Below, in pieces: positions 14,922 to 17,393 of a stretch of 18,500 bases of DNA. Source of the DNA: a virus (lineage: Duplodnaviria; Heunggongvirae; Uroviricota; Caudoviricetes); the IMG/VR virus record IMGVR_UViG_2534682324_000033. One strand, written 5' to 3'. Made by a program: the position numbers and the translations under genes. The notes under the pieces were generated by a model, which worked only from the letters and a program-made list of their open reading frames with translations, did no database searches and was not told the origin of the DNA. Numbering within the stretch: the stretch's first letter is position 1; the number at the start of each line of letters is the position of its first letter.

Positions 14922-17393
14922 ATGAGTAAAGTCTTTATTTGCGCCGCCATTCCGGACGAACAGGCAATAAAGGAAGAAGGTGCCGTCGCTGTAGCCACTG
15001 CCATTGAAGCCGGTGATGAACGTCGCGCCCGCGCAAAATTTCACTGGCAATTCCTGGAACATTATCCGGCTGCTCAGGACTGCGCTTATAAATTTCTTGT
15101 TTGCGAGGATAAACCCGGTATACCCCGCCCTGCCCTCGATTCCTGGGATGCTGAATATATGCAGGAAAACCGCTGGGATGAGGCGTCTGCTTCCTTTGTC
15201 CCGGTCGAGACTGAATCCGATCCGATGAACGTCACTTTTGACAACCTGGCCCCTGAAGTACAGAACGCTGTCATGGTTAAGTTCGACACATGTGAAAACA
15301 TCACTGTTGATATGGTGATTAGCGCACAGGAATTGTTGCAGGAAGACATGGCAACATTCGACGGCCATATCGTTGAAGCGTTGATGAAAATGCCAGAAGT
15401 TAACGCTATGTATCCGGAGCTTAAGCTGCATGCCATCGGGTGGGTTAAGCATAAATGTAAGCCTGGTGCCAAATGGCCCGAAATTCAGGCAGAGATGCGC
15501 ATCTGGAAAAAACGTCGCGAAGGTGAACGCAAGGAAGCCGGAAAATACACGTCTGTTGTTGATCTCGCCCGCGCCAGAGCCAATCAACAGCACACTGAAA
15601 ATTCAACAGGAAAAATCAACCCGGTCATTGCTGCCATTCATCGCGAATACAAGCAGACATGGAAAACACTGGATGACGAACTGGCCTACGCTCTCTGGCC
15701 TGGTGATGTGGATGCCGGAAACATTGACGGCAGCATCCATCGCTGGGCAAAAAATGAAGTTATCGACAACGGCCGCGAAGACTGGAAGCGTATCTCGGCA
15801 TCAATGCGCAAACAGCCTGATGCCCTTCGCTACGACCGCCAGACTATTTTTGGCCTTGTCCGTGAACGTCCGATCGACATTCACAAAGACCCTGTGGCAC
15901 TGAACAAATACATTACTGAATACCTGACTACAAAGGGCGTGTTTGAAGATGAAGGAACAAATCAGAGCGCAACTGATACTCTCTCGTCGCCAGTACCAGA
16001 AACTGATGCAGTGGAAACGGCAATTCCAGACAACGAAAAAACCGAATGCAAAGTGGAAGTCGAACCATCTGTAGAACGTGAGGGGCCGTTCTACTTCCTC
16101 TTCACCGACAAGGATGGCGAAAAATACGGTCGCGCAAACAAACTTTCTGGTCTGGATAAGGCGCTGGCTGCCGGGGCTACTGAAATCACAAAAGAAGAAT
16201 ATTTTGCCCGAAAAAATGGCACATACACAGGCTTACCGCAAAATGCAAATACCGCACAAAATTCTGAACAACCAGAACCGGTAAAAGTTACCGCTGACGA
16301 AGTAAAGAAAATTATGCAGGCAGCCAATATCAGCCAGCCTGACGCCGAGGAACTGCTTGCAGTATCACGTGGTGAATTTGTTGAAGGGATTAGCGACCCG
16401 AATGATCCGAAATGGGTTAAGGGGATCCAGACCCGCGATTCTGTGAACCAGAACCAGCAAGAAACGGAACAGAACGACCAGAAAGCGGAACAAAACAGCC
16501 CAAATACGCAACAAAACGAGCCAGAAACGAAACAACCTGAACCAGTAGTGCAACAGGAACCGGAAAAGATCTGCACCGCCTGCGGTCAGAGCGGTGGCGG
16601 CAACTGCCCTGATTGTGGTGCGGTGATGGGTGACGCAACATACCAGGAAATATTCGATGGAGAGAATCAGCCTGAAGTTCAGGAAAATGATCCGGAGGAA
16701 ATGGAAGGTACTGCACATCAGCACAAGGAGAACACTGGCGGCAATCAGCATCATGCCAGCGATAGTGAAACTGGCGAGGCGTCAGATCCCTTAATTAAGG
16801 CGAACGGTCATCATAATCTCACATCCACCAGCAGAGCGGGGATTCATCTGATGATCGATCTTGAAACCATGGGAAAAAATCCCGATGCCCCGATTATCTC
16901 AATAGGTGCAATATTTTTCGATCCGCAAACCGGAGATATGGGACCGGAATTTAGTAAGACTATCGATCTGGATACTGCTGGCGGAGTCATTGATCGGGAC
17001 ACCATGAAATGGTGGCTTAAACAATCACGCGAAGCGCAATCTGCCATTATGACCGATGAAATCCCGTTAGATGATGCACTGTTACAATTGCGGGAATTTA
17101 TCGACGAAAACTCCGGTGAATTTTTTGTTCATGTCTGGGGAAATGGAGCCAACTTCGACAACACGATTTTGCGCCGTTCATACGAACGGCAGGGGAGCCC
17201 CTGCCCGTGGCGTTACTACAACGATCGCGATGTACGCACAATCGTTGAGCTGGGGAAAGCCATAGACTTCGATGCCAGAACGGCTATTCCATTCGAAGGT
17301 GAGCGCCATAATGCACTTGATGACGCCCGTTACCAGGCAAAATACGTTTCAGCTATCTGGCAAAAACTGATCCCGAGTCAGGCTGATTCTTAA
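14922..17393 (+). CDS. large prophage protein (823 aa) with C-terminal DEDDh 3'-5' exonuclease domain, central zinc ribbon and Q/E/N/P-rich linker (intact ydfE-position gene)
   Basis: Uninterrupted ORF with GAGGT Shine-Dalgarno; CTACGQSGGGNCPDCG near 16569-16620; exonuclease motifs LMIDLETMG, VWGNGANFDNTIL and ERHNALDDARY in 16840-17390. Confidence 0.75.
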   Translation: MSKVFICAAIPDEQAIKEEGAVAVATAIEAGDERRARAKFHWQFLEHYPAAQDCAYKFLVCEDKPGIPRPALDSWDAEYMQENRWDEASASFVPVETESDPMNVTFDNLAPEVQNAVMVKFDTCENITVDMVISAQELLQEDMATFDGHIVEALMKMPEVNAMYPELKLHAIGWVKHKCKPGAKWPEIQAEMRIWKKRREGERKEAGKYTSVVDLARARANQQHTENSTGKINPVIAAIHREYKQTWKTLDDELAYALWPGDVDAGNIDGSIHRWAKNEVIDNGREDWKRISASMRKQPDALRYDRQTIFGLVRERPIDIHKDPVALNKYITEYLTTKGVFEDEGTNQSATDTLSSPVPETDAVETAIPDNEKTECKVEVEPSVEREGPFYFLFTDKDGEKYGRANKLSGLDKALAAGATEITKEEYFARKNGTYTGLPQNANTAQNSEQPEPVKVTADEVKKIMQAANISQPDAEELLAVSRGEFVEGISDPNDPKWVKGIQTRDSVNQNQQETEQNDQKAEQNSPNTQQNEPETKQPEPVVQQEPEKICTACGQSGGGNCPDCGAVMGDATYQEIFDGENQPEVQENDPEEMEGTAHQHKENTGGNQHHASDSETGEASDPLIKANGHHNLTSTSRAGIHLMIDLETMGKNPDAPIISIGAIFFDPQTGDMGPEFSKTIDLDTAGGVIDRDTMKWWLKQSREAQSAIMTDEIPLDDALLQLREFIDENSGEFFVHVWGNGANFDNTILRRSYERQGSPCPWRYYNDRDVRTIVELGKAIDFDARTAIPFEGERHNALDDARYQAKYVSAIWQKLIPSQADS

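Follow-up and report, generated by a model that had tools for sequence, protein, structure and literature searches.

A RecE-Type Scaffold With a Predicted DexA-Like DEDDh Exonuclease Cassette Encoded in the Early-Left Operon of Prophage CP-933P

Results

A Complete ydfE-Type Gene in Prophage CP-933P

The DNA analyzed in this work (the window) is a stretch of 18,500 nucleotides from a virus of the Caudoviricetes (IMG/VR record IMGVR_UViG_2534682324_000033). It has 100% identity to CP-933P of Escherichia coli O157:H7 EDL933, a prophage that is integrated beside ynfA, at the position of Qin. Its early-left region contains, in this order, the DicF RNA, dicB, ydfD, a gene for a protein of 823 amino acids (here named exo, and its product Exo), xis, and int (Table 1). 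Reading of the sequence alone had previously described exo as an intact gene at the position of ydfE, which in E. coli K-12 is disrupted by an insertion, and its product as a stand-alone, essentially unstudied DEDDh exonuclease with a zinc ribbon and a disordered linker (the original prediction). The gene is indeed a single uninterrupted open reading frame (ORF), its 823 codons being followed by a stop, and has the same coordinates as in RefSeq; it starts with ATG, preceded by a Shine-Dalgarno-like GAGG motif at about 10 nt, and no other long ORF exists at this position. The match to PHROG 2082 spans residues 1–822 of the 823. Amino acids 1–256 shared 96% identity with YdfE of K-12, where the gene is a pseudogene broken by IS2, so that the predicted relationship was correct: exo is the full-length form of ydfE.

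Of 5426 complete E. coli genomes, 3534 contained a match to the gene, and a single genome had as many as 10 matches (full or partial). The gene is also carried by the functional phages Tritos, mEp460, and HannyBb. We also collected 80 related loci, defined as viral contigs whose DEDDh domain has 94% or more identity to that of Exo, and exo was intact in 62 of them. Among 41 distinct 823-amino acid alleles, the ratio of nonsynonymous to synonymous substitution rates (dN/dS) was 0.06–0.18 in all the folded domains and 0.7–0.8 in three disordered linkers (residues 206–244, 346–385, and 576–640), which indicated that exo is under purifying selection. Together, the low dN/dS values of the folded domains, the number of intact loci, and the carriage by functional phages ruled out exo as a decaying prophage remnant. 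In one related locus (L011, 737–3127) the gene was broken into three consecutive ORFs (456, 157, and 183 amino acids), as it was in some E. coli genomes; some database entries for "stand-alone 3'-5' exoribonucleases" of about 180 amino acids may therefore be frameshift fragments.

The C-Terminal Domain Belongs to the DEDDh Exonucleases

The three DnaQ-like motifs noticed in the original prediction were located at residues 646–649 (DLET), 740–750 (GNGANFDNTIL), and 796–804 (HNALDDARY). Pfam searches placed residues 642–813 in PF16473 (E 3.6e-66; score 222.7 bits, cut-off 27), the match covering positions 2–177 of the 177 of the model, in agreement with a nuclease fold for the C-terminus. In an alignment of 65 homologues, which were 38–63% identical to the query, D646, E648, D746, and H796 were invariant and D801 was at least 90% conserved, so that the acidic residues expected for catalysis are retained; dN/dS of the domain was 0.13. 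When this alignment was used as a profile against PDB, the best match was phage T4 DexA (8KEL/8KEN; E 2.9e-22), followed by DnaQ and oligoribonucleases only at 8e-6 or worse, and Rv2179c was not recognizable among the matches with E values up to 10. The score for RNase_T (PF00929) was below its cut-off (22.9 versus 24 bits). On these sequence comparisons, residues 642–813 belong to the DEDDh 3'-5' exonucleases, subfamily PF16473/DexA, and exonuclease activity is predicted for them.

The structure of T4 DexA has been solved, and its E. coli homologue EcD was shown to digest 5-hydroxymethylcytosine (5hmC)-containing DNA and T4 genomic DNA and, expressed from a plasmid, to protect against T4 ("HREX"; PMC12153337). 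A candidate sequence for EcD (HAK9828821.1) was recovered by means of the primers of that paper: a protein of 189 amino acids (MIDTET...TTPFLNI) whose gene matches the forward primer in 17 of 17 bases and the reverse primer except for a one-base indel, and in which residue A78 fits; this is probably EcD. It is 38% identical to residues 644–816 of Exo (E 2e-34). The candidate is prophage-borne (loci L021, L026, L036, L039, and L042; for instance L042 6404–6970, minus strand), being located in prophage early regions beside a DNA methyltransferase gene. A prophage origin of the EcD gene is not discussed in PMC12153337.

The N-Terminal Part Is a RecE-Type Scaffold

The description of Exo as a stand-alone enzyme did not hold. 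BLASTP aligned residues 262–625 with residues 278–591 of RecE of the Rac prophage (E 2e-58), the final ~150 residues, zinc ribbon included, being about 80% identical, and hhalign of a profile of diverse relatives against RecE 241–480 gave a probability of 97.4%. By these alignments, amino acids ~233–625 of Exo are homologous to RecE ~241–591, and this region includes both the CxxC-x7-CxxC zinc ribbon and the Q/E/N/P-rich linker that the original prediction had correctly recognized. The alignment ends at query residue 625 and RecE residue 591, within about 15 residues of both nuclease domains, which places the junction of the cassette at amino acid 625.

Prediction of residues 1–500 with AF2 (AlphaFold2) yielded a model with a predicted local distance difference test (pLDDT) score of 75.9 and four folded units (residues 1–100, alpha/beta; 101–205, helical; 245–343, helical; and 388–433, beta/alpha). 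The first two form a YdfE-type head that stands in place of the PF06630 head of Rac RecE. The 388–433 domain, which is not present in Rac RecE, is the best conserved part of the scaffold, with invariant columns in alignment A1 at G388, P389, F390, Y391, R404, A405, K407, E421, and I422. The zinc ribbon was found in 76 of 79 related loci.

The original prediction had also proposed that RecE uses a nuclease fold different from that of Exo, and this was the case: PF16473 is present and PF12684 absent in Exo. A canonical RecE orthologue was further ruled out by the score against the NCBIfam RecE equivalog NF007259, which was 273.8 bits against a cut-off of 1269 with a good match only at model positions 445–603, by the lack of a PF06630 match, and by the absence of an adjacent recT.

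Heads and C-Terminal Cassettes Assort Independently

To define the family, 1.84 billion representative proteins were scanned with HMMER, and the hits were analyzed by segment-wise BLAST and Pfam searches. Two types of N-terminal head and three identified C-terminal cassettes were found (DEDDh, the RecE nuclease, and a Rad52-like annealing domain), heads and tails assorting independently. Thus, P0244 (805 amino acids) consists of RecE 1–345 at about 100% identity followed by a DEDDh domain of the query type at 97%; the 813-amino acid protein of phage vB_EcoS-689R5 joins a PF06630 head to the DEDDh domain; P0273 contains a query-type middle region and the RecE nuclease (89%); and P0259 contains a YdfE-type head and PF12684. 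Among the 80 related loci, 56 had the YdfE head and 17 the RecE N-terminal one. Since the same scaffold occurs with a 5'-3' nuclease, a 3'-5' nuclease, or an annealing domain, it appears tied to DNA-end transactions. As judged by sequence, Exo is a RecE-type scaffold with a swapped DexA-like DEDDh nuclease cassette, and we regard this identity as secure.

A further protein with a YdfE head, P0249 (702 amino acids), ends in about 230 residues that match none of the three cassettes and no Pfam family, PHROG 26058 being the only match. This C-terminal module may be a fourth cassette.

exo Lies in the Early-Left Operon Without an Annealing Partner

The window, phage Tritos, and vB_EcoS-689R5 share the order DicF, dicB, ydfD, exo, xis, and int. 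A scan of the plus strand between ydfD and exo revealed no promoter consensus and a single weak terminator-like hairpin (5-bp stem, 14867–14880), and because of this dicF-dicB-ydfD-exo was read as one operon. Downstream, xis and a frameshifted int come next, with no recT between exo and xis, in agreement with the absence of RecT pointed out in the original prediction. The frameshift in int indicates that CP-933P is probably defective; exo is nevertheless intact.

The lack of an annealing partner extends beyond the window. No recT or RecE-type nuclease gene was found within 6 kb in any of the 80 related loci, tblastn searches for RecT or Rad52-like proteins gave no match in the window or in the whole 46-kb Tritos genome, and none of the unannotated ORFs of Tritos belonged to annealing-protein PHROGs. 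Contiguous genes for an annealing protein, a single-stranded DNA-binding protein (SSB), or an anti-RecBCD function were likewise absent beside exo. Among stand-alone relatives in phages, the closest is that of lambdoid phage mEp235, with 57% identity to the DEDDh domain; it is encoded within a canonical recombination module, in the order kil, the single-strand annealing protein (SSAP) gene Erf, SSB, exo, Abc2, xis, and int. In Salmonella prophages, a stand-alone copy (58% identical) is the final early-left gene ahead of xis-int.

The window contains five Chi sites where 0.53 were expected, a number reached in none of 200 shuffles: one is located within exo (Table 1), and the others at 4371–4378 (minus), 5919–5926 (plus), 5971–5978 (plus), and 11415–11422 (minus). 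Tritos contains 11 against 1.77 expected, nine of them on one strand. This excess in both fits the Chi-rich class of lambdoid phages that lack a RecBCD inhibitor.

Table 1. Coordinates in the window of exo, its encoded domains and motifs, and neighboring features
Feature	Position	Strand	Remarks
Complete coding sequence of exo, 823 amino acids plus stop	14922..17393	+	EDL933_RS12355, WP_000048458.1; RefSeq product "exonuclease"
YdfE-type head, residues 1–205: alpha/beta (1–100), then helical (101–205)	14922..15536	+	
Helical middle domain, residues 245–343, common with RecE (~278–345)	15654..15950	+	dN/dS 0.18
Small beta-hairpin/helix domain, residues 388–433 (GPFY...GRANKL...EEY.ARK.G)	16083..16220	+	dN/dS 0.06; pLDDT ~88
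Conserved motif SRGEFVEGISDPNDPKWV	16359..16421	+	Common to RecE and Rad52-cassette relatives
Q/N/E/P-rich low-complexity linker, residues 501–545	16422..16556	+	27% Q, 13% N, 13% E; dN/dS 0.31
CxxC-x7-CxxC zinc ribbon, C551/C554/C562/C565	16572..16616	+	Kept in Rac RecE (C518...C532); weak Pfam DZR match
Acidic His-rich linker, residues 576–640	16647..16841	+	dN/dS 0.70
Chi site (GCTGGTGG) within exo	16825..16832	-	One of five in the window
Predicted DEDDh (DnaQ-like) 3'-5' exonuclease domain, DexA/Rv2179c-like family, residues 642–813	16845..17360	+	PF16473; DexA profile match
Exo I motif, D646-x-E648	16857..16865	+	Invariant
Exo II Asp, D746	17157..17159	+	Invariant
Exo III motif, H796-x4-D801	17307..17324	+	H796 invariant; D801 at least 90% conserved
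DicF small RNA	14227–14278	+	Rfam, 76.7 bits
dicB	14453–14641	+	Annotation
ydfD-like DUF1482 gene	14638–14829	+	Annotation
xis	17466–17717	+	Annotation
Integrase pseudogene, frameshifted and truncated (RefSeq)	17752–18434	+	

Other features were noticed in the window. Between the stop codon of exo and xis there is a perfect 9-bp inverted repeat (CGCCGGTTG ... CAACCGGCG, 14-nt loop; 17403–17435, plus strand) with no T-run, which could be an element for RNA processing or retroregulation. An inserted RelB/RelE toxin-antitoxin pair (12471–12942, plus) separates the repressor region from the early-left operon, and a hok/sok-type pair is also present, with a sok antisense RNA (Rfam, 116.9 bits) beside hokD (7207–7381 and 7057–7212, both minus). 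The late region encodes the small RNA STnc100 (3099–3271, minus; Rfam, 100.8 bits), flanked by a TerB-family gene and by a gene for a SASA/NanS-p-like esterase (1112–2962, minus). Three tRNA genes (Arg, Arg, and Ile; 4045–4291, minus) are located downstream of the Q antiterminator gene (4502–5191, minus), a layout like that of the Q-tRNA-stx-nanS region of Shiga toxin (Stx) phages; stx genes are absent.

Discussion

On balance we consider it probable, if by no wide measure, that Exo acts as a 3'-5' DNA exonuclease that processes DNA ends in the recombination module of lambdoid phages of the CP-933P (Qin/Tritos) type. We favor this reading because of the slot of exo in the operon, the scaffold shared with RecE, the existence of RecE-nuclease and Rad52-like cassettes on it, the context of the mEp235 and epsilon34 homologues, and DexA as the nearest characterized enzyme; we infer that DNA rather than RNA would be the substrate, that the scaffold would have a targeting function, and that the process served would be recombination. 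A survey of 314 lambdoid phages treated DnaQ-like 3'-5' nucleases as legitimate members of Rec modules (Genome Res 2025, PMC12315714), and exo lies between a kil-type gene and xis-int in the early-left operon, as the nucleases of such modules do. In the same survey Tritos is the prototype of a class of four phages that have a nuclease and numerous Chi sites but neither an annealing protein nor SSB nor an anti-RecBCD function, and "RecE-2" proteins without a nuclease domain are mentioned (PMC12315714). Tritos carries exo.

In the mechanism that we propose, Exo would be made upon induction from the early-left operon (dicF-dicB-ydfD-exo-xis-int), which would be repressed by DicA/CI until then. 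The scaffold (the ~625 N-terminal residues, with the head, the middle domain, the beta/alpha domain, the SRGEFVEGISDPNDPKW motif, and the Cys4 ribbon) would recruit the nuclease to the target or partner of the RecE N-terminal part, and the C-terminal domain of 180 residues would trim DNA from free 3'-OH ends in a two-metal reaction involving D646, E648, D746, D801, and H796. The product might be single-stranded DNA of a polarity opposite to that generated by RecE or lambda Exo; alternatively, the 3' tails and flaps of phage replication or recombination intermediates would be trimmed. Polarity alone does not exclude a role in recombination, because resection of either polarity exposes complementary single strands that can anneal. 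Since this phage type is rich in Chi and has no annealing protein or RecBCD inhibitor, the host RecBCD and RecA, the RusA resolvase of the phage, or recombinases encoded by co-resident prophages would supply the later steps.

Several observations weigh against this proposal. PF16473 is named after an exoribonuclease (Rv2179c/RNase AS), so that by family an RNA substrate may be possible. The usual effect of the DnaQ-type 3'-5' exonucleases of E. coli on recombination is inhibitory, and a nuclease without an annealing protein is an unusual module, regarded as "somewhat suspect" (PMC12315714). EcD, the sole E. coli homologue assayed, was reported as an anti-T4 defence nuclease (PMC12153337). The gene is intact in defective prophages such as CP-933P, with its frameshifted int, and the benefit could be for the host rather than for the phage. 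Finally, the comparison of the scaffold model with known structures returned no informative match, and because of this the targeting role of the scaffold is something that we infer and nothing firmer.

Exo might otherwise be a nuclease for superinfection exclusion or defence of the "HREX" type, degrading invading phage DNA (for instance the hydroxymethylcytosine DNA of T-even phages) and guarding the lysogen or the induced cell. We consider such a role rather unlikely. The digestion of 5hmC and T4 DNA by EcD and the protection that it confers from a plasmid (PMC12153337) speak for it, as do the similarity of the EcD candidate to the Exo domain, the prophage location common to both, the wide occurrence of exo in E. 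coli, and its integrity in a defective prophage. Yet the two DexA residues proposed to read 5hmC are replaced in Exo, and D717 is kept where EcD has Ala; moreover, exo occupies the distal position in an early lytic operon under repressor control and is not a moron with its own promoter. PADLOC gave for Exo only a weak generic match to Cas-associated DEDDh proteins (E 3.4e-5) and therefore no assignment to a defence system, and a defence role would leave unexplained both the RecE scaffold and its interchange of RecE-nuclease and Rad52-like cassettes.

That Exo might instead be a 3'-5' exoribonuclease, like Rv2179c/RNase AS or the ISG20-type "TONDO" enzymes, trimming the 3' ends of host or phage RNA in host takeover, in the control of early transcripts, or in the exclusion of RNA phages, seems improbable. 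The name of the Pfam family and the NCBI product names read "3'-5' exoribonuclease," the regulatory RNA DicF is encoded in the same operon, and prophage DEDDh nucleases that possess auxiliary domains are able to block RNA phages (2026 preprint, PMC13344964). The profile of the domain, however, pointed to DexA, with oligoribonucleases and other RNA enzymes at E values of 4e-4 or worse, Rv2179c not recognizable up to an E value of 10, and RNase_T under its cut-off, and the partner cassettes and neighboring genes have functions in DNA recombination; the TONDO set, in turn, is limited to proteins of fewer than 500 amino acids found by similarity to ISG20 (PMC13344964). An anti-defence or signal-degrading activity, in line with the destruction of nucleic-acid signals contemplated in the original prediction, is in our opinion less probable still; Exo would then clear short linear products of host immunity during lytic growth, such as linear oligonucleotide signals, 3' ends of retron multicopy single-stranded DNA, or primed DNA. 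The degradation of short linear oligonucleotides is known from DEDD enzymes such as Orn, and expression early in lytic growth, as deduced from the operon position, together with weak profile matches to Orn and REXO2, would agree with such an activity; these points are not specific to it, and it leaves the RecE scaffold unaccounted for, as it does the close homologues found inside recombination modules. Cyclic signals are unlikely substrates, since they lack the free 3'-OH end that a DEDDh exonuclease requires.

In a broader reading, and a doubtful one for now, the N-terminal region of YdfE and RecE might serve enterobacterial lambdoid phages as a common delivery platform with interchangeable DNA-end cassettes: PD-(D/E)XK 5'-3' nuclease, DEDDh 3'-5' nuclease, Rad52-like domain for annealing, and one or more modules besides. 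The DEDDh form would then provide recombinase-independent resection of opposite polarity, working with the host RecBCD-Chi and RecA in Chi-rich phages, or a nuclease aimed at the DNA of competing phages. If true, this would offer a first approach to the function of the ~590 N-terminal residues of RecE; in 2012, Fu et al. reportedly observed that full-length RecE is needed for linear-linear recombination. The scaffold view also joins the biochemistry of DexA and EcD with Chi-rich lambdoid phages lacking recombinases, and the natural cassettes on one scaffold may be of practical value for the design of recombineering tools. Roughly two of every three complete E. coli genomes contain the gene, in many cases with more than one match, and it occurs in Stx-phage-related prophages of enterohaemorrhagic E. 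coli; its usual annotation as "exodeoxyribonuclease VIII" or "exoribonuclease" is wrong and can be corrected to a RecE scaffold with a swapped nuclease. Our literature searches found no study of the full-length 823-amino acid protein, and to that extent it is unstudied, as originally predicted. The class as such is not undescribed: it is catalogued in PHROG 2082 and in Pfam (YdfE_N, YdfE_C, and Rv2179c-like), the phages that carry it are treated in PMC12315714, and the enzyme family in PMC12153337. What appears not to have been stated before is the explicit cassette architecture on a RecE scaffold, the swap junction, and the Rad52-like third cassette.

Comparison With Known Systems

The namesake of PF16473, Rv2179c/RNase AS of Mycobacterium tuberculosis, shares the Pfam family and the DEDDh fold with Exo and is a distant member. 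It is RNA-specific and prefers poly(A). With the ISG20-like "TONDO" exonucleases of prophages (PMC13344964) the comparison was made through the Pfam profile only, and PF00929 fell just short of its cut-off.

Nearer to Exo are T4 DexA and EcD, which belong to the same DEDDh subfamily and have the same catalytic residues. They are stand-alone proteins of about 190–227 amino acids, whereas the domain of Exo is a C-terminal cassette on an 823-residue scaffold. DexA W152 and D169, proposed to read 5hmC, correspond to Y766 and A780 of Exo, an assignment that is moderately secure, the alignment around D169 being gapped and acidic residues lying two to four positions away. D90 of DexA, the tetramer-forming Asp, is Ala in EcD and is kept as D717 in Exo. 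In gene position, parallels are found in the stand-alone DnaQ-like nucleases of lambdoid Rec modules, the "Exo" of epsilon34 and mEp235 (PMC12315714), which occupy the early-left slot near xis-int just as exo does. These are proteins of about 180 amino acids flanked by Erf, SSB, and Abc2; the query domain is fused to a RecE-type scaffold, and its phage type has no SSAP, SSB, or anti-RecBCD gene, unlike the surroundings of mEp235 "Exo."

The other half of the protein finds its counterpart in RecE (exodeoxyribonuclease VIII) of Rac. The partner gene of recE, recT, is not adjacent to exo in the window, in Tritos, or in the 80 related loci. The C-terminus of RecE (residues 615–850) is a PD-(D/E)XK nuclease (PF12684/DUF3799; 5'-3'), and that of Exo a DEDDh domain (3'-5'). 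The head of RecE is PF06630, in place of which Exo has the YdfE type, while the 813-residue sister allele of vB_EcoS-689R5 has PF06630; and the GPFY domain (residues 388–433) is an addition of Exo relative to RecE. What both proteins have in common is a similar size (866 and 823 amino acids), the motif SRGEFV(E/D)GISDPNDPKWV and the Cys4 zinc ribbon in the homologous central region, and the same early-left slot, in which a kil-type gene and small genes are followed by the exonuclease gene and by xis-int.

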